Under the pieces are notes generated by a model. The model did no database searches and was not told the DNA's origin. It worked only from the letters and a program-made list of their open reading frames with translations. 64,000 nucleotides of DNA from an uncultured Verrucomicrobiae bacterium (lineage in GTDB: Bacteria > Verrucomicrobiota > Verrucomicrobiia > Limisphaerales > UBA11358), in assembly GCA_963755455.1 (NCBI GenBank), contig CAVWJH010000001.1, positions 146,864 through 210,863 on the forward strand. Direction: 5' to 3'. This document shows positions 9,839-61,531 of the stretch, in pieces. The position numbers were made by a program, and so were the translations under genes. How positions within the stretch are numbered: position 1 is the stretch's first letter; every line of letters begins with the position of its first letter.

Positions 9839-10760
9839 TCACGCCTTCAAAAAGAAATTCCGCTGCTTCTCGCTGATGGGCATTTCGAGTTTTTCCATCA
9901 CGGCCAGCATGTCTTCCCAGACTTTGCGCTTCTCGCTCATCGCCTGGTTGCGCAGCAGATACGCCGGATGATACGTCGGCATGAGCGGCGTGCCGCGATA
10001 CGTCTGCCAGTTGCCGCGCAGCTTCGTGATGCCGACGGTCTTGCCAAGCAAACCTTCCACCGCCGTCGCGCCGAGCGCGACGAGAACTTTCGGGCCGGAT
10101 CAAATCAATCTGCTCGTGCAGATACGGAATGCACGTCGCCATTTCGTCGGGCGTCGGCTTGCGGTTGCCGGCGGACTGGCCGGGCGTGTCGGGCCGGCAT
10201 TTCAAAATGTTGGCGATGTAAACATCCGCGCGCGAAAGTCCGGTGGCCTGGATGATTTTCGTGAGCAATTGTCCGGCGCGGCCGACGAACGGTTCGCCCT
10301 GCTCGTCTTCATCCGCGCCCGGCGCTTCGCCGACGAACATCAGTTGCGCGTCAATGCTGCCGACGCCGAACACGACGTTCTTGCGCGACGACGCGAGGTG
10401 CGGGCATTTCACGCAGGACAAGGCGCGCTTTCGCAATTCGGCGAAGGCGGCGGCTTTTTCGGGCGAAGAACTGATGATTTGAGATTTGAGATTTTGAATT
10501 TCAGATGTTGGCGCGGTGGACGGAGGCGTGGCGGCGATTTTTTTTGCGGGCATGGAAATTGTGGTTTGAGTTTTAGAAGCGGGTGCGGCGGACGTTTTCT
10601 CAATTTCAGGTTTGAAATTTGAAATTTGAAATTTCGGCGCCGCCTGCGCAAGCGCGCGGAGCGTTTCTTTCGAGACGGCGACATTTCGCACGCCGCGCGA
10701 TTTCAATTCTTCGAGATGATGGATTGTCGCGTCGAGCAGTTCGTTGTAAGCAACGGCCAT
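9839..10760 (-). pseudogene. udg: Family 4 uracil-DNA glycosylase with a ~110-aa N-terminal extension; one frameshift near 10085
   Basis: [51 protein letters not shown]...ANILKCRP...IDLIRP then a frame change to ...[37 protein letters not shown]. Confidence 0.85.
10475..10636. repeat. Two heptamer-periodic arrays inside the udg N-terminal extension (10475-10506 and 10603-10636)
   Basis: gatttgagatttgagattttgaatttcag and aatttcaggtttgaaatttgaaatttgaaatttcg, translated in frame as [11 protein letters not shown] and [13 protein letters not shown]. Confidence 0.75.
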
Positions 10761-19553: not shown

Positions 19554-19640
19554 CCAGTCCAACAGTCCAAAGTCCAATGTCCAAAGTCGGCGCAGGTTGT
19601 TGACTTTGGACTTTAGACTTTGGACTTTAGACTTTAGACT
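19554..19640. repeat. Heptamer-periodic hairpin (AGTCCAA units / GACTTTG-GACTTTA units) in a divergent promoter region
   Basis: Left arm cagtccaacagtccaaagtccaatgtccaaagtc and right arm gactttggactttagactttggactttagactttagactt. It lies between the VOC start (19540, minus) and the nusB start (19647, plus). Confidence 0.85.
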
Positions 19641-19646
19641 TGATTT

Positions 19647-23686: not shown

Positions 23687-24841
23687 GTGGCAAAAAAAGA
23701 TTTCCAATTCATGCGGCTCGCCCTCCGGCTCGCCCGGCGCGGCTATGGCGCAACGTCACCGAATCCGATGGTCGGCGCGGTGCTGGTGAAAGGCGGAAAA
23801 ATCATCGGGCGCGGCTGGCATCGGCGCGCGGGTTTGCCGCACGCGGAAATCGAGGCGCTCCGCGACGCGCAAAAGCGCGGCCACAATCCGCGCGGCGCGA
23901 CGCTTTACGTCACGCTCGAACCGTGCTGCACGCACGGCCGCACGCCGCCTTGCACGGACGCCATCATTGCCGCCGGAATAAAAAAAGTTGTCGTTGGCGC
24001 GACTGATCCGAATCCGAAACACGCAGGCAAAGGGTTTAAGATTTTGCAGCGCGCGGGAATTGAAGTCGTTCACGGAATTTTGGGCGGCGAATGCGCGAAG
24101 CTGAACGAGGCTTTCAATCACTGGATTGTCCACCGCACGCCGTTCGTCACCGTGAAGGCAGCAATGACATTGGACGGCAAAATTGCGACGGCCAGTGGCG
24201 AATCCAAATGGATCACCGGCGAAAAAGCCCGCGCGCAAGGAATGAAATTGCGGCAGGGCGCGGACGCGATTCTCGTCGGCGTGAATACAATTTTGGCGGA
24301 CGACCCGTCGTTGACGTTTCGGCCAGTCCAAAGCCCGAAGTCCAAAGTCCAAAGCCGGAAGCCGGTTCGACGAATTATTTTGGATTCAATGGCGCGGACG
24401 CCGTTAAACGCAAAAGTCGTCAGCGATGAATTTCCGGCGCTGACGACAATTGTTGTCGGCGAACGCGCGCCGAAAAAGCGCGTGGCAACATTGGCGAAAC
24501 TGACAAATGTTCTTGTTGCACCTACAACGAAAAACTTGTCACTTGTCACTCGTCACTCGTCACTCGATTTGCGCTGGCTGTTGGAAAAACTCGGTTCGGA
24601 AAACGTGACGAGCCTGCTGGTCGAAGGCGGCGGCGAGGTGAACGCGTCGTTTCTGCTCGGCGGTTTTGCGCAGCGCGTCGCATTTTTCTATGCGCCGAAA
24701 ATTCTGGGCGCACGCGACTCGCGAAAAGCCGTCGCGGGCGAAGGCGTGAAAGATCCGACTGACGCGATTCAATTGCGCGAAGTCGAATGGCGTCAGCTTG
24801 GCGAGGATTTGCTGCTGACGGCGTTGGTGGTTGCAAGTTGA
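23687..24841 (+). CDS. ribD: Bifunctional riboflavin biosynthesis protein RibD (pyrimidine deaminase / uracil reductase)
   Basis: MRLALRLARRGYGATSPNPMVGAVLV...HAEIEAL...TLEPCCTHGRTPPC (CMP/dCMP deaminase zinc site), then ...VTVKAAMTLDGKIAT...GESKWITG...ILVGVNTILADDPSLT...LLVEGGG. Start is GTG 23687 or ATG 23711. Confidence 0.9.
   Translation: MAKKDFQFMRLALRLARRGYGATSPNPMVGAVLVKGGKIIGRGWHRRAGLPHAEIEALRDAQKRGHNPRGATLYVTLEPCCTHGRTPPCTDAIIAAGIKKVVVGATDPNPKHAGKGFKILQRAGIEVVHGILGGECAKLNEAFNHWIVHRTPFVTVKAAMTLDGKIATASGESKWITGEKARAQGMKLRQGADAILVGVNTILADDPSLTFRPVQSPKSKVQSRKPVRRIILDSMARTPLNAKVVSDEFPALTTIVVGERAPKKRVATLAKLTNVLVAPTTKNLSLVTRHSSLDLRWLLEKLGSENVTSLLVEGGGEVNASFLLGGFAQRVAFFYAPKILGARDSRKAVAGEGVKDPTDAIQLREVEWRQLGEDLLLTALVVAS
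24325..24365. repeat. In-frame heptamer array inside ribD (AGTCCAA/AGCCCGA/AGCCGGA, about 6 units)
   Basis: agtccaaagcccgaagtccaaagtccaaagccggaagccgg encodes PVQSPKSKVQSRKP between LTFR and VRRIILDS. Confidence 0.8.
24535..24567. repeat. In-frame heptamer array inside ribD (CTTGTCA/CTCGTCA, about 5 units)
   Basis: cttgtcacttgtcactcgtcactcgtcactcga encodes NLSLVTRHSS just before LDLRWLLEKLG. The heptamer family matches the pilin-associated hairpins. Confidence 0.8.
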
Positions 24842-24894
24842 AGGTTGAAAGTTGCAGTGGAAAAACTTGCAACTTGCAACCTGCAACCTGCAAC
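24829..24894. repeat. Heptamer-periodic hairpin between ribD and ribE
   Basis: ggttgcaagttgaaggttgaaagttgcag / loop / cttgcaacttgcaacctgcaacctgcaac. The ribD stop codon (24839-24841) lies inside the left arm. Confidence 0.85.
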
Positions 24895-24902
24895 ATCACC
24901 TC

Positions 24903-33344: not shown

Positions 33345-34170
33345 CAAAATAAAACGCATCGGGCTGATCGGTAATACTGGCAAGGCCGCGTGCGCCCAAA
33401 TCGTCCGCAAGGCCGCGCGGCTCATCGAGGCCGCCGGGCGCAAGGCTGTCGTGGACGGTGACATCGCGACACTCGCGCGCGGGTCGGACTTGCTGCTGGT
33501 TTTCGGCGGCGACGGCACGATGCTGCGCGCCGCGCGCGACATCGCCGGGTCGCCCACGCCGATTCTCGGCATCAACATCGGCGGCCTCGGTTTTCTCACC
33601 GCCCTGCCGTCAGGCAAGCTCGCGCACGCGCTGGAACAAATCTGGAGCGGCAATTTCAAATTTGAATCGCGCGCGTTGATTGAGGCCGTCGGCGTCTGCA
33701 ACGGGGAAAAAATCCACGAAACCGCGCTCAACGACATTGTCGTCAGCCGCGGCGCGGTGTCGCGGCTCATCACGCTGGACGTGGGCGTGGACGGCGAGCT
33801 GATCACGCGCTACCGCTGCGACGGGCTGATCATCAGTTCGCCGACCGGCTCGACGGCGTATTCGCTTTCGGCGGGTGGCGCGGTGTTGTTGCCGACGGCG
33901 GAAGTTTTTGCGCTCACGCCGATCTGCCCGCACGCGCTGTCGAACCGTTCCATCATTCTGCCGCTGTCCTCGAAAATTTCCGTGAAGGCCGTCAGCCCGC
34001 ATCCCGCGACGATTTTGAGCGTGGACGGCCAGGTTGTCGCGGAGCTTGACGCGGATGATGAAGTCACCATCCGCCGCAGCCGCCGCAAAATCCGTTTGAT
34101 GCACCTGGCGGACAATTCTTTTCTGGAGGCGCTGCGCCGGAAGCTGCAATGGCGCGGGGCGTATCTCTGA
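33328..34170 (+). CDS. nadK: NAD(+) kinase
   Basis: DLLLVFGGDGTMLRAAR...GINIGGLGFLT...NDIVV...YRCDGLIISSPTGSTAYSLSAGG. TTG start, overlapping the tlyA end. Confidence 0.85.
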   Translation: MKEQADKIKRIGLIGNTGKAACAQIVRKAARLIEAAGRKAVVDGDIATLARGSDLLLVFGGDGTMLRAARDIAGSPTPILGINIGGLGFLTALPSGKLAHALEQIWSGNFKFESRALIEAVGVCNGEKIHETALNDIVVSRGAVSRLITLDVGVDGELITRYRCDGLIISSPTGSTAYSLSAGGAVLLPTAEVFALTPICPHALSNRSIILPLSSKISVKAVSPHPATILSVDGQVVAELDADDEVTIRRSRRKIRLMHLADNSFLEALRRKLQWRGAYL

Positions 34171-34254
34171 AATGAAAAATGCGAAATTAAAAATTAAAAA
34201 TGGCCGCCAACGAACCGTGGCCGCATTCATTTTGCATTTTTAATTTTTAATTTC
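34171..34254. repeat. AT-rich heptamer-periodic hairpin (AAATTAA units) between nadK and the LacI gene
   Basis: aatgaaaaatgcgaaattaaaaattaaaaatg / ggccgccaacgaaccgtggccg / cattcattttgcatttttaatttttaatttc. Confidence 0.8.
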
Positions 34255-34262
34255 TTATTCCC

Positions 34263-37056: not shown

Positions 37057-37154
37057 TGACAAAAATGACCAAACCATAATGACGAATGACCAAAGAATTT
37101 CCAAATGTCCGAATGACAAACAAATTAGTCATTAGGATTTAGTAATTAGTCATT
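37055..37154. repeat. Heptamer-periodic arrays (AATGACC/AATGACG units and their partial complement TTAGTCATT) between pilB and pilT
   Basis: gatgacaaaaatgaccaaaccataatgacgaatgaccaaag ... aatgtccgaatgacaaacaa attagtcattaggatttagtaattagtcatt. Confidence 0.65.
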
Positions 37155-40168: not shown

Positions 40169-41513
40169 ATGCCTAGATACGATTATGTGGCGCTGGACGG
40201 GCGCGGCAAAGAGCAGAAGGGTTCGATTGATGTCGCCAGCCAGAATGAGGCGATCAGCCGCGTGAAGGACATGGGCTTGTTCCCGACGAAGATCGCGGAG
40301 GGCGCGAAGGTGCAGGACAAGTCGGCGAAGAAGAAGGCGAAGTCCAAGCCGGCGGCCAAGGGCGGCAAAAAGGGCGGCGGGATGAGCATGGAGATCAAAA
40401 TCCCGGGCTTGAGCGGCAGGGTCAAGCCGAAGGTGCTGACGACTTTTACGCGGCAACTGGCGACGTTGGTGGATGCAGGTCTGCCGTTGCTGCGAGGGTT
40501 GCGTGTGCTGGAGAAACAGGAGCGCAATGTGACGCTCAAGAGGATTTTAAGTGAACTGGCTCTGGCGATTGAGGGTGGCAGCACTTTCTCGGAGGCGCTG
40601 GCGCAGCATCCCAAAGTGTTCAACCGGCTGTTCATCAACATGGTCAAGGCGGGCGAGCTGGGCGGCGTGCTGGAAGTTGTGCTTAAACGCCTCGCCGAAT
40701 TTTCCGAAAAGGCGCAGAAGATCAAGGGCAAGGTCAAGGCGGCGATGTTTTATCCCGTGGCCGTGTTGATCGTCGCCACCGGCATCATGATCCTGCTGAT
40801 GGTGTTTGTCATTCCCCGGTTCAAGGACGTTTTTGCCGGCATGAACATCAAGATGCCGTGGTTCACGACGTTTGTGCTGGCCATCAGCGACGCCATCCGG
40901 CTCCACATTTTGCAGGTGTTGGGCTGGCTTGTGGTGGCCGTCGTGATTTTCCTAATCATCATAAAAAAAACAAAATCGGGCCGCTATGTCTGGGACAAGT
41001 TCAAGCTCAAGATGCCCGCGCTCGGCCCGGTCATCAGCAAGGTCGCCATCTCGCGCTTCACGCGCACGCTTGGCACGCTCGTCAGCAGCGGCGTCCCGAT
41101 TTTGCAGGCGCTGACGATCGTGAAGGAAACCGCCGGCAACGTCATCATCAGCAACGCCGTCAGCAAAGTCCACGAAAGCGTGAAGGAAGGCGAAACCATC
41201 ACCGCGCCACTCGAGGCCTCCGCCGTTTTTCCGCCGATGGTCGTCAGCATGGTGGACGTCGGCGAACAGACCGGTGCCCTGCCCGAAATGCTTTTGAAAA
41301 TCGCCGACAACTACGACGAAGAGGTGGACAACGCCGTCGCTGCCATGACTTCGCTGCTCGAACCCATCATGATTGTGCTTTCTGGCAGTCATCGTCGGCA
41401 GCATCGTGATCGCCATGTTTTTGCCCCTGATTGCGATGATCACGCAAATGAGCGGCGACAATGGCGGCAGTGTCGTGGCGGAGATTAAACGTCGCATCAT
41501 CATATTTTCTTAA
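40169..41513 (+). pseudogene. pilC: Pilus/T2SS platform protein PilC/GspF, one frameshift in a T-run near 41380
   Basis: Two GspF repeats (FTRQLATLVDAGLPLLRGL...; FTRTLGTLVSSGVPILQAL...). After LLEPIMIV the frame changes to LAVIVGSIVIAMFLPLIAMI..., with stop at 41511-41513. An unusual Lys-rich insert (KSAKKKAKSKPAAKGGKKGGG) sits near the N-terminus. Confidence 0.85.
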
Positions 41514-41605: not shown

Positions 41606-41890
41606 ATGGAGTTTGATTGGAATAATCCGCCCTTTGAAATGGATGGTTCTTTGACTCAACGGGAAATTGAAGAATCCTTTGAAGACCCGTTTGCCGTCCG
41701 GCTGCTGCCCGACTCGCCGAGGTTTGGCGTGCAGGCGCGGTTTTTCAATCTTGGAATGTCCGCCGGCGGCATCGGGGTTTTCAGCGTGTATCGGACAAAC
41801 GGCCGCTCCGTCCGCGTTTTGCACGCGCGCACGTTTGCTCCGGAAGAAAGATTTTTTTACCAGCGAAAAATGGACCAGACGCTTTCGTGA
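41606..41890 (+). CDS. brnT: BrnT family toxin (DUF497)
   Basis: FDWNNPPFE...TQREIEESFEDPFAVRLLPD...RFFNLGMSAGGIGVFSVYRTNGRSVRVLHARTFAPEERFFY. Confidence 0.8.
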   Translation: MEFDWNNPPFEMDGSLTQREIEESFEDPFAVRLLPDSPRFGVQARFFNLGMSAGGIGVFSVYRTNGRSVRVLHARTFAPEERFFYQRKMDQTLS

Positions 41891-41983: not shown

Positions 41984-42259
41984 ATGCGAACTTTTGCCAA
42001 CTGGGAAGACGTGCCGATTTTCGACAGCGAAAACGCGGAGTCGGATTTCTGGTCGGAGAACCGGCCCGACCTGCGGCTGATGGAGGCGGCCACGGCGGGC
42101 AGCGCCGAGGCGTCCGAGTCCGTGACCATCACGCTGCGGATTGACCCGCGGATGCTCGCGCGCATCAAGCGGCTCGCGCGCGCGCGGTATCTGAACTACC
42201 AGAGCATGATCAAGCAATGGTTGAGCGAGCGGATGGAAGACGAATTGCGCGACAAATAA
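41984..42259 (+). CDS. brnA: BrnA-like antitoxin (CopG/RHH-type C-terminus)
   Basis: ...ESVTITLRIDPRMLARIKRLARARYLNYQSMIKQWLSERMEDE. Confidence 0.7.
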   Translation: MRTFANWEDVPIFDSENAESDFWSENRPDLRLMEAATAGSAEASESVTITLRIDPRMLARIKRLARARYLNYQSMIKQWLSERMEDELRDK

Positions 42260-42269
42260 TTATATGAAA

Positions 42270-42299
42270 AGTGACAAGTGGCGAGTGACAAGTGGCGAG
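42270..42299. repeat. Heptamer array (GTGACAA/GTGGCGA) upstream of the first pseudopilin
   Basis: agtgacaagtggcgagtgacaagtggcgag. Confidence 0.75.
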
Positions 42300-42302
42300 A
42301 AA

Positions 42303-43011
42303 ATGATGAGCAACAAGCGGCAAGTGATGCGCCTGAACAAAGCTCATCACTCCGGCTTTCACCCTCATTGAACTGCTCGTCGTCATCTCCATCATCGGCG
42401 TGCTGGCCGCGTTCACCCTCACGGTTTTGAAATCGGTGAAAAGGCACCAATACATTTCCCACACGCAGGCGGAAATGGGGCTGCTGGAAACCGCCATCCA
42501 GCGCTACCACGACGCCTACGGATTTTATCCGCCGGGCAATGGCAGCGGCGATCCACGGGTCAACCAGCTTTATTACGAACTGGAAGGGACGACTTTTAAT
42601 CCGGCAAATAATTCATACACAACCCTGGATGGCGGCTTGCAAATCAGCTCCAACAACCTGAACAAGGCGTTTGGCGTCGGCGGCTTCATCAATTGCACCA
42701 GGCCCGGCTCCGCTGAAGACGCTCATTCCGCCCAAAATTTTCTGCCCGGCTTGAAACCAAGGCAATATAATGCGGTTACAAACCCGTCGCCTGGCGGTCC
42801 GCTCGTCACCATCCTCACCGGTTCGGTTGGCGGGCCGGATCAAAATTACAAGCCGTTCGGTGCGTCTGGCCTGAATCCCTGGCGCTACGCTTGTCCCGGA
42901 ACGAACAACCCCAGCTCGTATGATTTGTGGATTCAACTGGTGATCAATGGGCAAACCAACCTCATCTGCAACTGGAGCGGGCAGGTGCGGATCAACAGCC
43001 CGCTGCCGTGA
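42303..43011 (+). pseudogene. Prepilin-type N-terminal cleavage/methylation domain protein (pseudopilin 1), one frameshift in a T-run near 42357
   Basis: MMSNKRQVMRLNKAHHSG|FTLIELLVVISIIGVLAAFTL... is restored by removing one T from ggctttcacc (compare ggcttcaccctcatcgaactg at 43325). Confidence 0.75.
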
Positions 43012-43037
43012 AAATTTTTATGCGCGACGATAAAAAA

Positions 43038-43126
43038 AGTGACAAGTGGCAAGTGACAAGTGACGGGAAAATGGTGCGCCGGGGAAAAAACCCGTCACTC
43101 GTCACTCGATCACTCGATCACTTGAC
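43038..43126. repeat. Heptamer-periodic hairpin (GTGACAA/GTGGCAA arm and CACTCGT/CACTCGA arm)
   Basis: agtgacaagtggcaagtgacaagtgacggg ... cccgtcactcgtcactcgatcactcgatcacttgac. Confidence 0.85.
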
Positions 43127-43294
43127 AATGCGCGGCCAAATCCCGTGGCCGTGGACTGGCACGACTGCGCGTGGTCGCCGCAAATCGTCGTTCAGACGCC
43201 GTCGCGAACGCAAAACTGGTTCGAGACAAAACAATTGCCCGCACCGCCGCAAATTCTCCATACTCCGCGCCGCAACCGGACCGATTTCAAAACC

Positions 43295-44093
43295 ATGAAA
43301 ACCATCCTGCCATCGTCACGCCGCCATCGCGCCGGCTTCACCCTCATCGAACTGCTCGTCGTCATTGCCATCATCGCAATTCTGGCGGCGATGCTGCTGC
43401 CGGCCATCCCGTATGCCGTGAACCTCGCAAAGAAGAAAAAGGCGCTTATCGAAGAACAGGGGATTGTCACGGCCATCGAAGGTTACGATTCGGAATATGG
43501 CCGCTTTCCGGTTTCGACCAACGCGCAAAATCAGGCCGAATCAAACGCGAGGTCTCCCAAAAACAACCCGGATTTTACTTATGGGGGAACGTTATTAGCG
43601 GAACGACGGTAGGCACTCAAATTTCCGGCGTAGTCTTAACGAATAACGAGGTGATCGCCATTTTGATGGATATGCAAACTTATCCCGGCAGCGGAGCTCC
43701 AACCATAAACAACAATCACGTCAAAAATCCGAAGCAGACAAAATTCCTGAACGCCACGATGACAAGCGACCCGACGTTGCCGGGTGTCGGCCCGGATCTG
43801 GTCTATCGCGACCCGTGGGGCAATCCCTATGTCATCAGCATGGATCTGAATTACGACGACCAGTGTGAGGATGCGTTTTATTGCCAATGGGCTGTTTCTG
43901 AGAATCCACCGGGAGGCAGCAGCCAGTCTGGTTACAATGGACTGGTCAATCCATATCATGGGCCGCAGGGGTGAAGGATCGTTTTCAATATCACGGCAAG
44001 GTCATGGTCTGGTCCGCCGGTCCGGACAAAAAAATTGTTAATGGGCCGGCAAATCAAGGTGTCAACAAAGACAATGTTTTGAGCTGGCAGTGA
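43295..44093 (+). pseudogene. GspG-like major pseudopilin (pseudopilin 2), two frame disruptions (near 43590 and 43970)
   Basis: MKTILPSSRRHRAG|FTLIELLVVIAIIAILAAMLLPA..., later DPWGNPYVISMD and a tail ...VMVWSAGPDKK...VLSWQ*. Confidence 0.8.
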
Positions 44094-44100
44094 AACTTCC

Positions 44101-44121
44101 ATTTACGATTTACGATTCATA
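44101..44121. repeat. Short heptamer array (ATTTACG, about 3 units)
   Basis: atttacgatttacgattcata. Confidence 0.5.
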
Positions 44122-44136
44122 CTGAGGTTTCACGAT

Positions 44137-45016
44137 TTGCAGAAAATCGTCGGAGTCCGTTTCCATCAATCATCAACATTCCCGCGCGCCTTCACGCTGA
44201 TTGAACTGCTGGCTGTGATTACGATTTTGGGCATCATCGCGGGGCTGGCGGTTCCGGCACTGAAGGAGCTCGGCAAATCAAACGGAAACATCGGCGCGTC
44301 ACGGCAGTTGCTCGCCGACGTCGGGCGTGCGCGGCAACTGGCCATGGCCGACCACACGACAGTCTATATGATTTTCGTCAAAACAAATTTTTGGATGACG
44401 CCCAATTTTCCAAATTTTTGGTGGAACAATCCGTTGATGACCACCGCCGAGAAAACCGTGGCGACCAACTTGTGCGACAAGCAATTGACGGGTTACACCT
44501 TTGTCAGCCTGCGTTCGGCGGGAGACCAGCCGGGGCGCGTCACGGTGCGTTATCTGGCACCGTGGCAAAATCTGCCGGCCGGCACCTTCATCGCGCCGCA
44601 AAAATTTCAGCCTCCCTCCAGTCCGCCGTTCCACATTCCGGGTTATGATCCAGCCATCCAATATTTACGGCTTCAACATCACCAACAACATTCCGTTTCC
44701 AACCGAAGACAGCCCGAAGTCGCCGGTTTTATATCTTCCGTATATCGCCTTTAATTATCTTGGACAGCTTACATCCGACGGGCAGAACCTTGCCGCCAGC
44801 GATGAATACATTCCCCTCGCGCAGGGCAGTGTCTTGCCGGCGATAAACCCGGCAACCAAGGCATTGATCCTCGAGGCCGCTCCCGCCGGTTCGGCGTCCA
44901 TTTTAGAAACTCCGCCCGGCAACAGCGGCATTGGTAACAACAACCTTTCCTACAACATCGTCCACATTGACCGGCTGACGGGGCGGGCCACCTTGGAATT
45001 CTACAAAATGAAATAA
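44137..45016 (+). pseudogene. Pseudopilin 3 (GspH/FimT-like), one frameshift near 44645
   Basis: ...SSTFPRA|FTLIELLAVITILGIIAGLAVPAL...SRQLLADVGRARQLAM, then a frame change to ...IYGFNITNNIPFP...RLTGRATLEFYKMK*. TTG start. Confidence 0.7.
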
Positions 45017-46392: not shown

Positions 46393-47199
46393 ATGAAATT
46401 TCGCCCGCAACATTATCATCCGCAATCGGCCTTCACGATGATCGAGGTCGCCATCAGCCTGGCGATCATCGGCATCGCGCTCGTCGGCATCATCGGCGTG
46501 CTGCCGCTGGGATTGAACACGCAGCGCGTCAATCGCGAGCAGACCGTCATCAACCAGGACGCGACCGTTTTCATGGAGGACATCCGCAACGGCGCACGCG
46601 GCGCGGATGATTTGACGAATTATGTTTATGCCATCGTGATTACGAAAGCCGCCAGTCAAAACGTCTATATCAACCCGACGCTTGCCGGCGCGATGGGTTT
46701 TTCCACTGCCATTTTGCCTACGACGCCGCCCATTCAATCGTATCCCATACTGACCAACGGCGCGAACATTGTCGGCCTGTTGAGCACGCCGGAATTTTTG
46801 AACGTGGACGGCGGGATTGCGGACAGCACTTACACGGCGGCGATGAGCAATCACATTGTGGCCAGCGTCCGCTCCATCAACGGGCCGGCGTTTGAAAAAC
46901 CGCCGCAGGACAACGCCATTTTGAAGCAGGATTCATTCAGCTACCGCATTTATTGCGTCAACGCGCCGGTGGCGGTTGATACCAATGCAGTCGCCAATCC
47001 CGGTTACACGCGCCAGCTCGCCGCCAACCTGCACGACCTGCGCCTGACGTTTCTCTGGCCGGTGCTGCCAACCGGCAAACTGCCGGCGCAGCCCTTCCTT
47101 GCGACGTATCGAACCCTCGTCGCCGGGCAGGTTGCGCAGGACGCCGTCAACACCAATTTGTTTTTTTACCAGCCGCAATCATTCACCACCGCGCCGTGA
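46393..47199 (+). CDS. Pseudopilin 4 (prepilin-type N-terminal domain, GspI-position)
   Basis: MKFRPQHYHPQSA|FTMIEVAISLAIIGIALVGIIGVLPLGL. Confidence 0.8.
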   Translation: MKFRPQHYHPQSAFTMIEVAISLAIIGIALVGIIGVLPLGLNTQRVNREQTVINQDATVFMEDIRNGARGADDLTNYVYAIVITKAASQNVYINPTLAGAMGFSTAILPTTPPIQSYPILTNGANIVGLLSTPEFLNVDGGIADSTYTAAMSNHIVASVRSINGPAFEKPPQDNAILKQDSFSYRIYCVNAPVAVDTNAVANPGYTRQLAANLHDLRLTFLWPVLPTGKLPAQPFLATYRTLVAGQVAQDAVNTNLFFYQPQSFTTAP

Positions 47200-48152
47200 A
47201 AACAAAAACAACAGTGGCAAGTGGCAAGTGGCAAGTGGCAAGAGCCTCGTCGCGAGGATTTTGTCTTGTCACTCGTCACACGTCACTTGTCACCCGCTCC
47301 GCCTTCACTCTCATCGAGGTGATGGTGGCGGTGGCGCTGCTCTCGCTCATCGTCATCGCGCTGATGGCGGTGTTCAACAGCACGCAGGCGGCGTTCCGCG
47401 CGGGCGTCACGCAGGCGGGCATTCTGGAGGGCGGGCGCGCGACGATGGATTTGATCTCGCAGGATTTGAAGGAGATGGCGCCGTCGGACGGTGTCAGCAA
47501 TGGCGTGGTGAATTTTTACGCCTACGTCGTCAGTTCGCCCGGCCCGCTTGTCCAGACGCTGACCGCCAGCAGCCGGTCGCGGACAAACGTCCTGGAAACA
47601 ATTTTTATCTTGAGCCGCGACAACCAGACTTGGATCGGCACGGGCTATGTCGTGGACACTTCGGCCACGGCGTCCATCAATCCGCTCTACCGTTTCACCC
47701 CCGCCGATTTGCCGCCGCGTCCAGCCCCGTGGCAGATTTTTACCAATTTTCTCGCCAACAGCACGCTTCCGATTTCGCAAAACAACACCAACATGAGCCA
47801 TCTGCTGGACGGCGTGGTGGATTTTCGCGTGCGCGCCTTTGACACCAACGGCGGGCGGATGAACAATCAAGTTGTTTTTACCAGCGGTCAGTTCACCACC
47901 AACGAAAATGTTTATTATCTGCCGTCCGGTTCCGGCTCCGGCTTTGGCGAGACGGGCTTTGTCATGTTCAGCAACACGCTGCCCGCGTCCGTGGAGATTG
48001 ACATGGCCACGCTCGAAGACCGCACCTTGCAGCGCGCCGAATCGCTGCCGAACAACCTGCGCACATCCTATTTGCAGGGTCAGGCAGGCAACGTCCAGGT
48101 TTTCCGCCAGAGCGTTTCCATTCCCAATGTTGACCCGTCCGCCTATCAATGA
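47196..48152 (+). CDS. Pseudopilin 5 (GspJ/PulJ-like) with an unusually long leader
   Basis: GTG overlaps the upstream stop (GTGA). MKTKTTVASGKWQVARASSRGFCLVTRHTSLVTRSA|FTLIEVMVAVALLSLIVIALMAVFNSTQAAFR. Confidence 0.8.
   Translation: MKTKTTVASGKWQVARASSRGFCLVTRHTSLVTRSAFTLIEVMVAVALLSLIVIALMAVFNSTQAAFRAGVTQAGILEGGRATMDLISQDLKEMAPSDGVSNGVVNFYAYVVSSPGPLVQTLTASSRSRTNVLETIFILSRDNQTWIGTGYVVDTSATASINPLYRFTPADLPPRPAPWQIFTNFLANSTLPISQNNTNMSHLLDGVVDFRVRAFDTNGGRMNNQVVFTSGQFTTNENVYYLPSGSGSGFGETGFVMFSNTLPASVEIDMATLEDRTLQRAESLPNNLRTSYLQGQAGNVQVFRQSVSIPNVDPSAYQ
47213..47293. repeat. Heptamer-periodic hairpin (GTGGCAA x4 arm / TTGTCAC-type arm) lying inside the pseudopilin 5 leader-coding region
   Basis: agtggcaagtggcaagtggcaagtggcaag agcctcgtcgcgagg attttgtcttgtcactcgtcacacgtcacttgtcacc. 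Confidence 0.85.
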
Positions 48153-51100
48153 AAATAAAAAGTGACAAGTGGCAAGTGACAAGTGATAAGCGCCGTTGCC
48201 CGGCGCGCGGTGGAACTTTTGCCGCCCATCACTCGTCACTTATCACTCGCCACTCCGAAAACGGCGTCGCGCTGATCATCACGCTCATCCTGCTGGCCGT
48301 GACACTCGTCATGGCGCTCGCGTTCCTGGCCATCAGCCGCCGCGAAAGCGGTTCCGTGACGACCGCCGGCGAGACCGCCACCGCGCGCCTTGCCGCCGAC
48401 GCCGCGCTTGCCAATGCCGAGGCGCAGGCCGTGGCCGGCATCCTCTCCACGACCAATCCCTACGATTTCGGCCTGCTCGTCTCGACGAACGCCCCGCCGT
48501 TGAATTTCAACAACGGTTTGGGCGACTACACCAGTTTGCAAATCAGCCCGCGCCCGCCGGTGTTCATTCCGCAAAACGGCACGAACGATTTTCGTTTTTA
48601 CCTCGACCTGAACCGCAACGGGCATTTTGACTCCAACGGCATCGTGGCGGATGTGGACAACACGGGAGTGACGAATGGAAATTTCTCCTTTGAAACCGGC
48701 GACCCCGAATGGATCGGCGTGCTGGAGCATCCCGACCAGCCGTATGGGCCGGACAACCTGTTCATCGCGCGCTACGCCTTCATCGCCCTGCCCGTCGGCA
48801 ACGCGCTCGACTTGAATTACATTCACAATCAGGTTCTTGATGAACGTTCTTCGACGGTAAATCCACCGAAAGGAATTAACAACAATCCTGAAAATGATTT
48901 ATATTTTCGCAACCAAGATATTGGTTCCTGGGAATTGAACCTCGCGGCATTTCTAGCCGATGTAAACACGAATCAGTGGGGAAGAATTATTGATCCGCCG
49001 AACATCATCGGCAACGGCAGTGGCTATTACACTTACAACGAAACTTCAGGAAATCCGAATCATGGCGCTGCCTTTGACGACGCCCGCGCGCTGCTCGCGT
49101 ATCGTTACGCGAACAATTACAACACGCTTGCCTGGGTCCAGACCCTTTTCGGCAACACCGGCGCGACGGCGTTTCGGAACGATGGCATTGACGGCTATTC
49201 CGACGGGCCGCTGCAGACGACTTTTGACACCAATGAGGATTTTGTTTTCAGTAGCGCCAAGGACATTCCCACACTGCCGTGGGCGGGCGCGGACAGCACC
49301 AACCATTTCTTCACGCCGTCGGATTTGTTCGACCCGGCGAAAAGCTCGCCGGCTTTCACCAACCGACTGCTCATTGCCGACGCGCAAACGGACACCTACG
49401 ACCGCTACACCTATTACCGGCTGCTCTCGCAGCTTGGCACGGACTCCGATCCGGAATCGGGGCAAGATGAATTTGAACTACGACAATCTCGATCGCGGCT
49501 TCAACGGCGTTTTGAACACCAACGGAACCGCGAGCGCGACGAATTTTGTTCCCTGGACGCCGCTGGGATTTTTCACCAACGCCGCCGACCGGATGCTGCG
49601 CGAATATACTGCGAACTGGATCAATCAAAACTACGCCGGTTTCACCAACACTTTCGGCGTCTCGACGACCAGCGCCTTTGGCGTGACGAACATCCCGGTT
49701 TATGTCAATGGACGGTTTGTCTATACACCCGCCGTTCACCGCATCCTCCAACTGGCCGCGAACATTTACGACGCGACGGTGAGCAACAGGAAGAACGGCT
49801 CGCCCGATTATCCCGATGTCTTCCGTCCGCTGTTCAGCAAGGATGCGGCGGGCGATGTTTTCATCTCCGGCTACACGAACTTGAACAATGGCGGCGTTCC
49901 CAATACTGTTTCAGGGCCGGGCGATCCACAGCTTTCCCAGCCATTTGATGTAGCGTATATTTCCGGCTTGTCCGGCGTCATTACCAACGTGCCGGACAAC
50001 ATCTACGGCGTGCCGTGGATCATCGGCGCGAAGAAAGGCTTCCCGAACTTCAACGAAATTTCGATGGAGAACAGTCTGGCCGTCACGCGGCGGCTTCAAC
50101 TGACCCGCACGACAAATAGTTATGTGCCGGTCATCACCGGCACGAACCAGATGTATACGATGAGTTTGAGCAGTTCAATCGGGGTCGAGCTGTGGAATTC
50201 TTACAGCTCCAATTATCCCGGCACGATCCAGATTGACGTGAATGAAAATGCTTGGACGATGATCACCAATTACGATCGGGGTGCGCGTGAATGGAAAGTG
50301 AATCCATTTCCATTTACAACCAACAATTTTATTGCTCCCTATGTTCCTTATGTAATCAATTCATGGCCGGGATCCGGCGTGGGTTGGAGAAGCAGTGGCA
50401 GTCCGAATACCGCCTCATTTGTCCCTTTTGTTTTTACCGGCCCCACTCTGACCAACTCGGTTTATTATTCGTCTTATTATGCAGGCGCGCCAGGCGTGCC
50501 TGCCGGGACTGATTTGTTTTCCACAAACAGCTTGCCGAGTCCCGTTCCTTGGGAACCTACTTCGACGGATGGGAACGGTTTTCATTTCCCGCAGTTTGGA
50601 GTGCTGATAACGAACCGGTTGCAGGTCTTCATGCTGGATGTCAGTGGCGGCGTGTATCACGTCATTGATTATGTCCATTTTGAAGGGCCGGACAGCCCCT
50701 TCAACGTGAATGCAAGTCTGGTTGATAATGACGGCCTGAATAATTATGTGGGCGTGTGGGATACAAATTATCCAACTGGCAGCGTGCCGCCAGCCGGAGT
50801 GACTTATGGCATCTTGAATCAAATCAGGATTTCAAAAAGTGGTGCGCCAGATCAGGATTTAGATGGTTTGTGGCAGGCAGATCCCGAAGCGGTTCCCCTT
50901 GGCGGAACCATAGCCCAACAGCAGGCATTTTTTCAGGCATTTTTCCTGCCGGGCAATCATTCTGGCAGCACAACGAATTTGGAATTAAGCGTGGAAGCGC
51001 CTTACGCGCCGACTCGTTATATTTCACAATATACCACCTGGCAGGTTAATGATCCGCTCGTGCATTATCTGGCCAGCGACATTGATGCGCCGCCACTAAA

Positions 51101-52211
51101 TAACACATCCATACCGCAACCCGGTTTGAATCACTACAATTTCCCCATCACGAACGGATTGACGAGCCTTAACTTGGGGCAATTGAATGATCGTTATATG
51201 CCGTGGGGTGGCAACTCGAAGCTGGCGGCTGAAGGACAGGCGTTGCAATTTGACCCAAATGCCTACAATTCGGCGGAGCGCGATCCGCTGGCGTCTTCAT
51301 CGGACAACTGGGATTTTCCGACGAACAAACTGCCGACGACCGGCTGGCTGGGTCGCGTGCATCGCGGCACGCCGTGGCAGACGGTCTATCTCAAGTCGTC
51401 GCCGATAGACACCGCCACATGGGCGACGTGGACGGGCGATACGCAGACAAGTTTCAACCAATACTTCGACGCGGCCAATTCCGCGCCGGCGCAGGACCGT
51501 CTGCTGTTCGATCTTTTCACGACGGCGTTCAACGACAACGCCACGCGCGGCCAGCTTTCGGTCAACGTCGCCGCCAACGATCCCGATCCGGCGGCGGGAC
51601 TCGCGGCGTGGTCGGCGTTGTTGAGCGGCGTCGTTGCGCTGACAAACAATCCGTTTGCCGGAACCGTGACCAACACAATCATCCAGCCTGCCGGGATTTA
51701 CGATGCGACATTGCCGCTGACCAACCAGCCGCCGCTCGCGCAAATTGTCGAGGGCATCAACAGCGGGCGGACAAACTTTGTGGGCGCGGACAGATTGCGC
51801 GGCTCGTTTGAGCACGTCGGCGACATTTTGTCCGTGCCGCAATTGACGGACAAGTCGCCATTCATTTCCATCATTCCGCAAACCGTTGACGGCGCTGGAC
51901 AGATCATACCGCCAGTTTATCCCAACGACGAAGTCATGGAATGGCTGCCGCAGCAGGTGATGTCGCTGCTGCGCGTGGGCACGCCGCGCTATGTGATTTA
52001 CAGCTACGGCCAGGCGCTCAAGCCCGCGCCCTCTCCAAACGGCATTTATACGGCGAATGGGTTGCTGATCACGAATTACCAGATCGTGTCGGAAGCCGCC
52101 ACGCGCGCGGTGGTGCGCTTTGACAGCACGGTGACGAACATCAACGGCACGCTCTCCGTGACGAACAACCGCGCGGTGATCGAGAGTTATAACATTTTGC
52201 CGCCGGATTGA
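48149..52211 (+). pseudogene. Giant GspK/PilX-like minor pseudopilin (~1350 codons), one frameshift in a G-run near 49465
   Basis: ATG overlaps the upstream stop (ATGA). ...HSENG|VALIITLILLAVTLVMALAFLAISRRE... The ORFs 48149..49948 and 48990..52211 join at ...GTDSDPESG|KMNLNYDNLD. Confidence 0.7.
48161..48254. repeat. Heptamer-periodic hairpin inside the GspK-like leader-coding region
   Basis: agtgacaagtggcaagtgacaagtgata ... catcactcgtcacttatcactcgccact. Confidence 0.85.
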
Positions 52212-52214
52212 ACA

Positions 52215-52920
52215 ACCGCCAAGACGCAAAGGCACAAAGATGAAGACAATATTTTGTAGGAGCCGAGGTTACGAGGCTCAAATTAAAAAGTTGGAGACTC
52301 CTTGCGTGGTCTTCTGCATAGCGACGGACTTTGTAAGGAAAACGGTCAAAAACCGCCATTTTGGGATGAATTGCCTCAAAACAACGGGATTATCCAGATG
52401 ACAAACATATTAAAACGCCAATTTCGCTTGGCCGGATGGTCGGGCAACTTGGCCGGATGGTCGGGCAACTTGGCCGGATGGTTGGGCAACTTGGCCGGAT
52501 GGTTGGGCAACTTGGCCGGATGGTCGGACGACTTGGCCGGATGGTCGGGCGACTTGGCCGGACGGTCGGACGACTTGGCCGGACGGTCGGGCGACTTGGC
52601 CGGACGGTCGGACGACTTGGCCGGATGGTCGGGAAACTTACCCGAACGGTCGGGAGATTTAGCTGGAGGGTCGAGCAATATGCGGCTGCGGTTCGATGCG
52701 CCCTGCGCCGAACACTTCGTGCGGACAACTCGTTTGCGGAAGGCGGACGAATTGCTCCGGTCATGCGCGCCAGAAAGTCAACGACGTGGCGTCGTTGACG
52801 GCACGCGAGGCGCGTGCGCTCCCAAAAATTTTAAGGTTTCAATTTTGAAAAATGGCATACAGAGGGTAGTCTATACCAGTAATAATGCCGACTCTTGGCG
52901 CTCTTTGCGTCTTGGCGGTT
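52215..52920. repeat. Intergenic repeat block bounded by a perfect 18-bp inverted repeat (AACCGCCAAGACGCAAAG / CTTTGCGTCTTGGCGGTT)
   Basis: Left copy at 52215-52232 and right copy at 52903-52920. The interior holds a GTAGGAG-type REP (~52255), a 21-bp minisatellite and a CACGCGAGGCGCGTGCGCTCCC REP (~52805). Confidence 0.6.
52428..52679. repeat. Tandem minisatellite, 12 x 21 bp (TTGGCCGGATGGTCGGGCAAC and variants)
   Basis: Twelve head-to-tail units counted by hand. The first ten are near-identical, with patterned variants (GGCAAC, TTGGGCAAC, GGACGAC/GGGCGAC alternation). The last two are degenerate. Confidence 0.9.
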
Positions 52921-61449: not shown

Positions 61450-61531
61450 AGTCCAAAGCCCAAAGTCCAAAGTCCAAAGTTGCCGAAACGGGAAATCAAT
61501 CGGCAATCGGCAATCGACAATCGGCAATTGG
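61450..61531. repeat. Two adjacent heptamer arrays inside uvrA (AGTCCAA/AGCCCAA units, then AATCGGC units)
   Basis: agtccaaagcccaaagtccaaagtccaaag ttgccgaaacggga aatcaatcggcaatcggcaatcgacaatcggcaattgg. The uvrA frame changes from 0 to 2 somewhere across this stretch. Confidence 0.8.

Follow-up and report, generated by a model that had tools for sequence, protein, structure and literature searches.

Hairpins of 7-nt repeat units are probably translated in frame within long prepilin leaders of a Verrucomicrobiota pilus-like operon

Palindromic repeats that lie in frame within protein-coding genes are known as the Rickettsia palindromic elements (PMC10969869). Here an analysis is presented of hairpins built from tandem 7-nucleotide (7-nt) units at the very beginning of two genes, those for pseudopilin 5 (pp5) and for a large GspK-like protein, in a pilus-like operon of an uncultured Verrucomicrobiae bacterium (contig CAVWJH010000001.1, positions 146,864 to 210,863 of the forward strand). 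The 64,000 nt analyzed are called the window throughout, and all coordinates refer to it. Sequence comparisons make it likely that these hairpins are translated in frame within unusually long prepilin leaders, and that this arrangement is general for the lineage. Like the Rickettsia elements, the leader hairpins are short palindromes present in many copies and several families, are in frame and apparently translated by the host, and occupy tolerated sites (PMC10969869). The Rickettsia elements are about 150 bp long with a conserved sequence and peptide, whereas the leader hairpins consist of varied tandem 7-nt units, are concentrated at cistron 5′ ends and, in the pilins, fall in a segment expected to be cut off.

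An excess of heptameric repeats has been described in several bacteria, among them the STRR sequences of cyanobacteria, GGGAATC in Xanthomonas and TAACTGA in Beggiatoaceae, and its function is unexplained (PMC4679880; PMC4692102). The TAACTGA arrays stand a few nt upstream of start codons without Shine-Dalgarno sites (PMC4679880). The leader hairpins share with these repeats the 7-nt unit and the occurrence of several units per genome, and inverted stem-loop arrangements have been noted among the known repeats (PMC4679880; PMC4692102). The described heptamers are nevertheless over-represented in intergenic DNA and form mostly direct, untranslated arrays, whereas the leader hairpins form paired stems of about 28 bp, many of them inside reading frames. 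The CTCTT repeat of the Neisseria opa genes is, like the leader arrays, a non-triplet repeat tolerated in a cleaved N-terminal peptide region (PMC3745409), but it forms long direct arrays whose copy number switches the gene on or off, whereas the leader arrays are short, palindromic and almost always in frame.

In its basic leader, G or A at position -1, F at +1, E at +5 and hydrophobic helix, pp5 resembles proteins with class III signal peptides, including the long-leader type IVb pilins. The leaders of known prepilins are about 5–30 amino acids (aa) long. Those described here are 36 and 39 aa in the window and about 100 aa in orthologues and, unlike known class III leaders, they take their sequence from a DNA repeat, and one close relative can carry an entirely different leader from the next. 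The gene set is similar to the Verru_Chthon cassette (TIGR02596, TIGR02598, TIGR02599, TIGR02600), with three small prepilin-type proteins and a protein of about 1,300 aa having a pilin-like N-terminus, and the best or only NCBIfam subfamily matches are Verru_Chthon D for pp3, B for pp4, C for pp5 and A for the large protein. These matches involve only the first 35–70 residues, and the scores (cut-offs in parentheses) are 24.8 (256.5) bits for C, 18.7 (332.3) for A, 21.9 (51.4) for B and 33.7 (70) for D, far below the curated values, and the genes are therefore not Verru_Chthon members by family threshold. In the literature searched, no description was found of heptamer repeats in Verrucomicrobiota, of palindromic 7-nt arrays in leader peptides, or of prepilin leaders this long.

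Both start codons overlap the stop codon of the preceding gene, as a first-pass annotation of the window had reported: GTGA at 47196–47199 joins the GTG start of pp5 to the TGA stop of pp4, and ATGA at 48149–48152 joins the ATG start of the GspK-like gene to the TGA stop of pp5. The features of this region are listed here, with a slash for the predicted cleavage site.

46393 to 47199, + strand: pseudopilin pp4, with an ordinary 13-aa leader, MKFRPQHYHPQSA/FTMIEV, and a PF07963 match at residues 11–33
47197 to 47199, + strand: TGA stop of pp4, overlapping the pp5 start
47196 to 47303, + strand: pp5 leader-coding segment, 36 codons, MKTKTTVASGKWQVARASSRGFCLVTRHTSLVTRSA, then /FTLIE
47304 to 48152, + strand: mature pp5, beginning FTLIEVMVAV, with its TGA stop at 48150–48152
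48149 to about 52211, + strand: large GspK-like gene, starting at 48149
48149 to 48265, + strand: GspK-like leader-coding segment, 39 codons, MKIKSDKWQVTSDKRRCPARGGTFAAHHSSLITRHSENG, then /VALIITL
48266 to 52211, + strand: mature GspK-like protein, beginning VALIITLILLAVTL..., about 1,350 aa

The predicted leaders of 36 aa (pp5) and 39 aa (GspK-like) have exactly the sequences written in that annotation, and a codon scan agrees with its claim that no ATG, GTG or TTG lies in frame between the right arm of either hairpin and the cleavage motif. Ahead of F37 in pp5 such codons occur only at positions 1, 7 and 14, and ahead of G39 in the GspK-like gene only at positions 1 and 10; codon 14 of the former (47235) and codon 10 of the latter (48176) are within the left arm, and between the left arm and the cleavage motif neither gene has a canonical in-frame start. 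Because the internal starts all fall within the left arm, at least the loop and the right arm would be read from any canonical start. With translation from the conserved overlapping codon, both leaders exceed the usual range of about 5–30 aa; counted from the last canonical start, they are at least 23 aa for pp5 and 30 aa for the GspK-like protein. No near-cognate start codon follows codon 14 in pp5, and the GspK-like leader contains a single one, an ATC at codon 32, within the right arm.

The residues that follow the pp5 leader form a prepilin motif in the context ...RSA/FTLIEVMVAV, matching PF07963 at 23.1 bits (cut-off 21.2; residues 34–56) and TIGR02532 at 17.6 bits (cut-off 16.3; residues 35–56), and in profile matches the resemblance of pp5 to GspJ and Verru_Chthon C is confined to the N-terminus. 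GspK-type proteins lack F1 and E5, and the N-terminus of the GspK-like protein (...ENG/VALIITL) is likewise without them. This protein has no Pfam match and aligns only weakly with TIGR02600, over positions 1–55 of that profile.

Folding of the two cistron starts yields the stable stem that had been predicted for each. The pp5 hairpin (stem 47214–47293) has a free energy of -45.1 kcal/mol and a z score of -6.4, and the GspK-like hairpin (stem 48161–48254, arms of 32 nt) has -45.1 kcal/mol and z = -5.8; in neither case is any of 200 shuffled sequences as stable. Both consist of four 7-nt units per arm (GTGRCAA on the left, TYGTCAC on the right), extend over about 80–94 nt and start 12–18 nt past the start codon. 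Their parts are the following.

47214 to 47241, + strand: pp5 left arm, four perfect GTGGCAA units
47242 to 47264, + strand: pp5 loop, with a small internal stem, CCTCG...CGAGG
47265 to 47293, + strand: pp5 right arm, CTTGTCAC TCGTCAC ACGTCAC TTGTCAC, giving LVTRHTSLVT in translation
48161 to 48192, + strand: GspK-like left arm, GTGACAA GTGGCAA GTGACAA GTGATAA
48193 to 48222, + strand: GspK-like loop, with two small GC-rich stems
48223 to 48254, + strand: GspK-like right arm, giving AHHSSLITRHS in translation; the arms are 78% complementary

Tandem Repeats Finder reports period 7 at 47213–47242 (4.3 copies, 100% matches) and at 48160–48190. Three GTGACAA units in succession place a stop codon in every frame, whereas the GTGGCAA variant, in which TGG replaces TGA, is stop-free in every frame; in the GspK-like left arm, the TGG variant stands exactly where GTGACAA would bring its TGA into frame. 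Such a pattern fits a translated state but alone is not evidence of selection, since an untranslated-looking copy at 43039 matches it. An Rfam scan of the window returned tRNA only, with no known RNA family at the hairpins.

The leaders were compared across 34 Limisphaerales-type loci, 29 from a scan of one genome per species for the same gene order and five from four exact-protein look-ups; individual loci are cited below by L numbers. For pp5, an ATG or GTG stands at position -3 from the end of the pp4 stop codon in 29 of 29 sequences (28 orthologues and the window; L029 was left out of this count, as the motif was not found there), and the distance from stop to F is 2 mod 3 in 28 of the 29. 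The pp5 leaders have 16 distinct lengths between 63 and 294 nt, and the chance that 16 independent lengths would all be in frame is at most 7e-8. The GspK-like leaders have 22 distinct lengths between 21 and 339 nt, every one a multiple of 3; three apparent exceptions are explained by an ATG 4 nt past the stop in L021 and by tandem junction duplications in L015 and L029. For each of the two genes, about 29 orthologues share the overlapping start. Orthologue leaders range overall from 7 to about 113 aa, and about 55 of 58 leaders are in frame. Stop codons are nearly absent from the leader frame.

pp5 leaders, 1,319 codons: 0 stop codons in frame, 25 in frame +1, 28 in frame +2
GspK-like leaders, 1,344 codons: 1 stop codon in frame, 27 in frame +1, 40 in frame +2

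The maintenance of frame over many lengths and the avoidance of stops in one frame only therefore argue that the repeats lie within a translated reading frame, as the first-pass annotation had proposed. That annotation had also suggested comparing leader lengths in orthologous operons, and the outcome is the reverse of one that would refute translation. Orthologues without the hairpin start at the same ATG with short leaders (MKRHSQQG/VALIITL in L019 and MKTRRTNDESG/IALV in L011). Among the 120 closest database homologues of pp5, as publicly called, 110 have 10–65 residues (median 34) before FT(L)IE, and many of these leaders are visibly translated repeats. Net charge per residue is 0.13 in the leaders and 0.11 and 0.06 in the other two frames, which is no clear difference. 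An assembly artefact was considered and rejected; the architecture recurs in many samples that were assembled independently, some from Illumina and some from long reads. In two loci (L015:8915-9210 and L029:8863-9319) a module comprising the last about 25 nt of pp5, the ATGA and the hairpin is present in tandem, twice in L015 and three times in L029, and the extra copies introduce short reading frames after pp5, ahead of the GspK-like gene.

These data bear on whether the hairpins could instead be untranslated REP-type elements, with true starts downstream of the right arm or past the motif and with short leaders or none. The public call for pp5 would fit this explanation, since it starts at ATG 47322, after FTLIE (P0001, 276 aa), and in total 10 of the 120 closest homologues, the window's own call included, start past the motif and are without it; most hairpins of the same build in the window also lie in 5′ untranslated regions. 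However, a start at ATG 47322 deletes the conserved F1/E5 motif from pp5, a start between hairpin and motif would have to do without even a near-cognate codon in pp5 and with only the right-arm ATC in the GspK-like gene, and 38 distinct leader lengths are all divisible by 3 with stops avoided in one frame only. The hairpin-free orthologues, moreover, start at the overlapping ATG. Untranslated elements are thus very unlikely as an explanation. In 10 of the 120 homologues the hairpin leaders have misled annotation in a systematic way, placing the start past the motif. An exact look-up of the 318-aa pp5 product returned no record, and a database search with the GspK-like leader alone gave no candidate with enough 5-residue words in common.

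A second alternative treats the 7-nt units as a contingency switch comparable to the CTCTT repeat of Neisseria opa (PMC3745409): because 7 is not a multiple of 3, slippage by one unit would shift the frame and turn the pseudopilins on or off. The non-triplet unit and the placement of the arrays in a region tolerant of length change are compatible with such a switch, as are three out-of-frame cases, namely pp3 of the window, pp5 of L009 and the pp1–pp2 spacer of the window, which differs from L030 by 2 nt in the right arm. Against this, nearly all leaders are in frame, in contrast to what is known of opa, the arrays have only 3–4 units, and neither the 4 + 4 units nor the 108-nt length of the homologous pp5 leader varies among six sequences, those of the window, L030/L031, L032, L033 and L034. 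Related leader lengths of 34, 35 and 36 aa differ by non-multiples of 7 nt, and most of the out-of-frame cases occur in assemblies with homopolymer errors, the Illumina-assembled L030 pp3 excepted. A switch of this kind is therefore hardly credible for these operons.

In the preferred explanation, in which the repeats are part of the leaders, translation would begin at the overlapping NTGA start, most likely through coupling with termination of the cistron before it, and the ribosome would read the hairpin in frame, producing basic leaders of 36 and 39 aa in the window. The precursor would insert by its hydrophobic helix, and prepilin peptidase would presumably cut after the A or G at -1, leaving ordinary mature pseudopilins. 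Coupling is probable because the median distance from the start codon to the stem is 12 nt, near enough to hinder independent binding of a small ribosomal subunit, and the stem may make initiation depend on the upstream ribosome. The leader stretch would extend from a conserved start (M/V-K-x-K) to the cleavage site (A or G before F-T-L-I-E, or G before V-A-L-I). Since the cistrons overlap by 4 nt there is no intergenic space, and repeats are therefore confined to this tolerant stretch. The comparisons above support initiation at the overlap and reading through the hairpin, with actual translation inferred; coupling and the cleavage of leaders as long as these are inferred from what is known of overlapping cistrons and class III signal peptides.

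Several observations weigh against this explanation. To our knowledge, leaders of 36–100 aa are beyond any known prepilin peptidase substrate, and a crude motif scan found no prepilin peptidase gene in the window. The public pp5 call already described begins after the motif, pp5 of L009 is out of frame by 1 nt, and pp3 of both the window and L030 is out of frame relative to the orthologue-type start. The window also contains many indel errors; within the pp5 and GspK-like leaders, however, no frameshift was found, and both align without gaps to the Illumina-assembled L030.

The case of pp3 indicates that not every leader hairpin is fully translated. In the window the orthologue-type GTG at the overlap with the pp2 stop is not in frame and runs into a TGA, and TTG 44137 would give an 18-aa leader; in L030 (2590-2740) the orthologue-type start likewise fails, through its frame or a stop, and a usable GTG is present at the right arm. 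Both usable codons lie within the hairpin remnant, and in some genes initiation therefore seems to take place inside the hairpin.

The window hairpins are copies of a dispersed palindromic family consisting of about four 7-nt units, a loop and about four complementary units. The motif GTGRCAAGTGRCAA (up to 1 mismatch) has 14 matches at 5 sites in the window, where 0.1 would be expected, and three full hairpins of this family have z scores of -4.7 to -6.4, consistent with a dispersed repeat. The third of them lies outside the two leaders.

43035 to 43122, + strand: full GTGACAA-family hairpin in the pp1–pp2 spacer, -37.6 kcal/mol, z = -4.7

Its right arm has period 8 in the window; the hairpin is kept in L030 and is there traversed by a reading frame that continues into pp2. 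The window holds more than 15 further period-7 arrays made of other units, together with additional hairpins of the same build, as for the heptameric arrays of other bacteria. Unit sequences of the 7-nt family are numerous, both in a single genome and from one genome to another, and the family has a strong preference for cistron 5′ ends. In 30 loci, the set used for array positions around the six cleavage motifs, 144 of 155 period-7 arrays lie within the 310 nt upstream of these motifs, a region making up 12% of the sequence, and arrays of all six pilin-type genes are seen in one genome or another. Orthologue leader peptides derive from differing units, for example FRISDFGFRI...PHSAFRNRNG, FTIYDLRFTI...NRQSPIVNRQS, SNIQHSTPN...MLNVEC, IANRKSQIAN and SRVESRESRV...STLGPRP, while SDKWQVTSD...LVTRH belongs to the unit family of the window.

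Arrays also reside in frame within genes other than those for pilins. Two lie inside RibD (24331–24356 and 24533–24568; VQSPKSKVQS and LSLVTRHSSL), and two that are not mutually complementary lie inside UvrA (61450–61531); the peptides occupy positions that look like linkers or loops, for example SKAQSPKSKV...SAIGNRQSAIG. A further array at 10474–10636 (minus strand) is hosted by what we take to be possibly a uracil-DNA glycosylase-like gene. In-frame residence within coding genes is thus seen in the leaders, RibD and UvrA, and a location outside coding sequence does not describe the two leader arrays of the window or most arrays of the orthologous operons. Together with the concentration of arrays upstream of the cleavage motifs, the linker positions in RibD and UvrA support the earlier suggestion that the leader is a permissive place for repeats. 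No target duplication was obvious at the identical flanks that surround different elements in the window and L001, and neither terminal repeats nor a link to a transposase were seen, although no systematic search was made. In the pp5 leaders of L004, L007 and L008 (e.g., L004:1820-2011) a GC-rich palindromic repeat takes the place of the 7-nt arrays; its peptide reads GSTPAPGVxGRASRP...REGAKNCTRGGCAPR, and a similar GTRGACAPKNF occurs in a window frame near 52.8 kb (about 52780–52830).

The leaders show both turnover and constraint. L001, whose mature pp5 is the nearest to that of the window (88% aa identity), has near-identical flanks and a leader of the same 108-nt length, built from the unit AATCGCA and only 36% identical to that of the window. 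The homologous pp5 GTGGCAA hairpin, its loop and its 4 + 4 units retained in a leader of exactly 108 nt, is nevertheless found in L030/L031, L032, L033 and L034, whose mature pp5 is down to 57% aa identical to the window's, and a homologous GspK-like leader is found in L030 and L032. The homologous pp5 leader is 85–94% identical at the nt level versus 70–89% at fourfold-degenerate sites (binomial p = 7e-4 and 2e-4 for the two most distant pairs); outside the arms the conservation is weaker (p = 0.01 and 0.07). The pp5 leader is thus not freely drifting, and its mode of change could reflect selection on the stem or equally array homogenization or coding constraints.

These measurements are relevant to the possibility that the hairpins are selected cis-regulatory RNA, in which the stem would block independent ribosome binding, enforcing strict coupling and fixed stoichiometry, or would set the stability of mRNA segments, with translation a by-product. 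Hairpins stand at the leader position in nearly all orthologues despite complete sequence turnover; the median gap is 12 nt between the first base of the start and the stem and 7 nt between the stem and the cleavage codon; and the slow change of the pp5 leader relative to fourfold sites points the same way. Hairpins of other 7-nt units at 19556–19644, 24824–24897, 34170–34259 and 37063–37154 end 2–9 nt before the ATG of a nusB-like gene (19647), ribE (24903), a lacI-type gene (34263) and pilT (37164), respectively, where they overlap the expected ribosome-binding region, and a role in translation has been proposed for the TAACTGA repeats upstream of Beggiatoaceae start codons (PMC4679880). On the other hand, sense RNA folds less stably than antisense RNA in 37 of 53 leaders (means -52.4 versus -56.7 kcal/mol, p = 4e-4), with G:U pairs commoner in the antisense fold, contrary to what selection on mRNA structure predicts. 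In close relatives drift has turned the right arm into CCGTCAC units, and the sense stem is thereby weakened to a z of about -2.5 at unchanged length; no part of the L011 and L019 operons contains an array; RibD and UvrA hold arrays of this kind at a great distance from any start; and the slow arm change could be array homogenization, given the weaker conservation outside the arms. A regulatory stem is a tentative proposal with less than even support, and it is compatible with translation of the repeats in the leaders. For the earlier suggestion that the stem gates translation the evidence is divided: position relative to the start and slow leader change favor it, whereas the unexceptional stability of the sense strand and the two array-free operons do not.

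In the window, apparent frameshifts, mostly in short homopolymers, occur at 42354–42363, about 43592, 43956–43966, about 44662, 49459–49465 and about 41380–41488, splitting pp1, pp2 (twice), pp3, the GspK-like gene and the end of pilC; in the GspK-like gene an apparent 1-nt insertion lies in a GGGG run near 49459–49465, and the L030 protein is intact at 1,367 aa. Because the Illumina-assembled L030 carries all those genes intact, the frameshifts are probable sequencing errors, likely long-read indels. The upstream genes and leader regions are as follows.

about 42264, + strand: start of pp1
42264 to 42357, + strand: probable pp1 leader, MKSDKWRVTSGEKMMSNKRQVMRLNKAHHSG/F; left-arm array at 42270–42299, right arm not real
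43295, + strand: start of pp2
44137, + strand: start of pp3
44090 to 44190, + strand: pp3 start region, with a remnant of a TTTACGA-family hairpin
45031: start of an NHL-repeat protein

A weaker version of the leader hairpin that had been proposed for pp1 (KRQV...AHHSG/) does not hold up. It crosses a 1-nt frameshift (GGCTTTCACC at 42354–42363, T run at 42357–42359) at which one extra T must be assumed: the ...AHHSG F frame meets a stop (GGC TTT CAC CCT CAT TGA), and the FTLIE frame is closed by TGA 42334. The segment folds no better than shuffled sequences (z = -0.3), and the start of pp1 is likely ATG 42264, not 42303.

The interval from the pp1 stop to the proximal pp2 ATG (43021–43298; core 43145–43190) contains a peptide-like motif, AVDW(H/R/Q)DC(A/R)WxPxI, that is kept in about 15 orthologues, in frame with pp2 and stop-free. 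Conservative replacements within it, D/E among others, suggest that the constraint acts on the protein. In L030 (1533-1850) a frame running from an ATG just past pp1 through the hairpin to pp2 would amount to a 105-aa ‘leader’; in the spacer of the window, where the right arm is of period 8, the frame is off by 2 nt.

Profile matches and reading frames identify 35.3 to 52.2 kb of the window, which has 56% G+C, as a pilus-like or type II secretion-like locus, and the operon comes from a soil or peat member of the Verrucomicrobia. To judge by the organisms with orthologous operons, the genome is of the subdivision 3 / Limisphaerales type. The upstream part of the locus contains ATPases, a PilC/GspF-type platform protein and a small BrnT/CopG-type gene pair, and the run of prepilin-type genes follows downstream of these. 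The small pair (41606–41890 and 41984–42259) lies directly before pp1 and is kept in L030/L031 and L033; its second gene belongs to the CopG antitoxin family in the L030 record, and the first looks like a putative BrnT-type toxin. The placement of such a pair between pilC and the pseudopilin genes is odd and conserved. Just 3′ of the large gene, a 21-nt tandem repeat (52427–52654; 10.9 copies, 91% matches) would encode LAGWSGN-type heptads if translated.

A broader proposal, which we regard as speculative and rather unlikely, is that 7-nt hairpins beside start codons constitute a lineage-wide system of translational control in Limisphaerales-type Verrucomicrobiota, and that the pilus-like cassette has absorbed them into leaders of up to about 100 aa, including the pp2 extension with its conserved AVDWxDCxW peptide, that the peptidase can still process. 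Such control may involve a protein that binds the 7-nt units, or the hand-over of ribosomes between overlapping cistrons. If this were true, the leaders would represent a new class of prepilin leader and the hairpins a new control element in coding sequence.

Translated leader hairpins have consequences apart from this proposal. If the leaders are processed, prepilin leaders can be several times the accepted range in length and set by a DNA repeat, which bears on the substrate limits of the peptidase. For annotation, filters on leader length and the choice of start mis-call such genes, as in the public pp5 call that removes FTLIE. The operon offers a clean natural example of palindromic 7-nt repeats inside reading frames whose frame is kept through dozens of independent length changes, and the strong association with start codons offers a defined operon in which the long-unexplained heptamer excess of bacteria can be put to the test. 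A stem of about 45 kcal/mol situated 12 nt into each overlapping cistron would likewise be a natural system in which to study the limits of coupling between cistrons.

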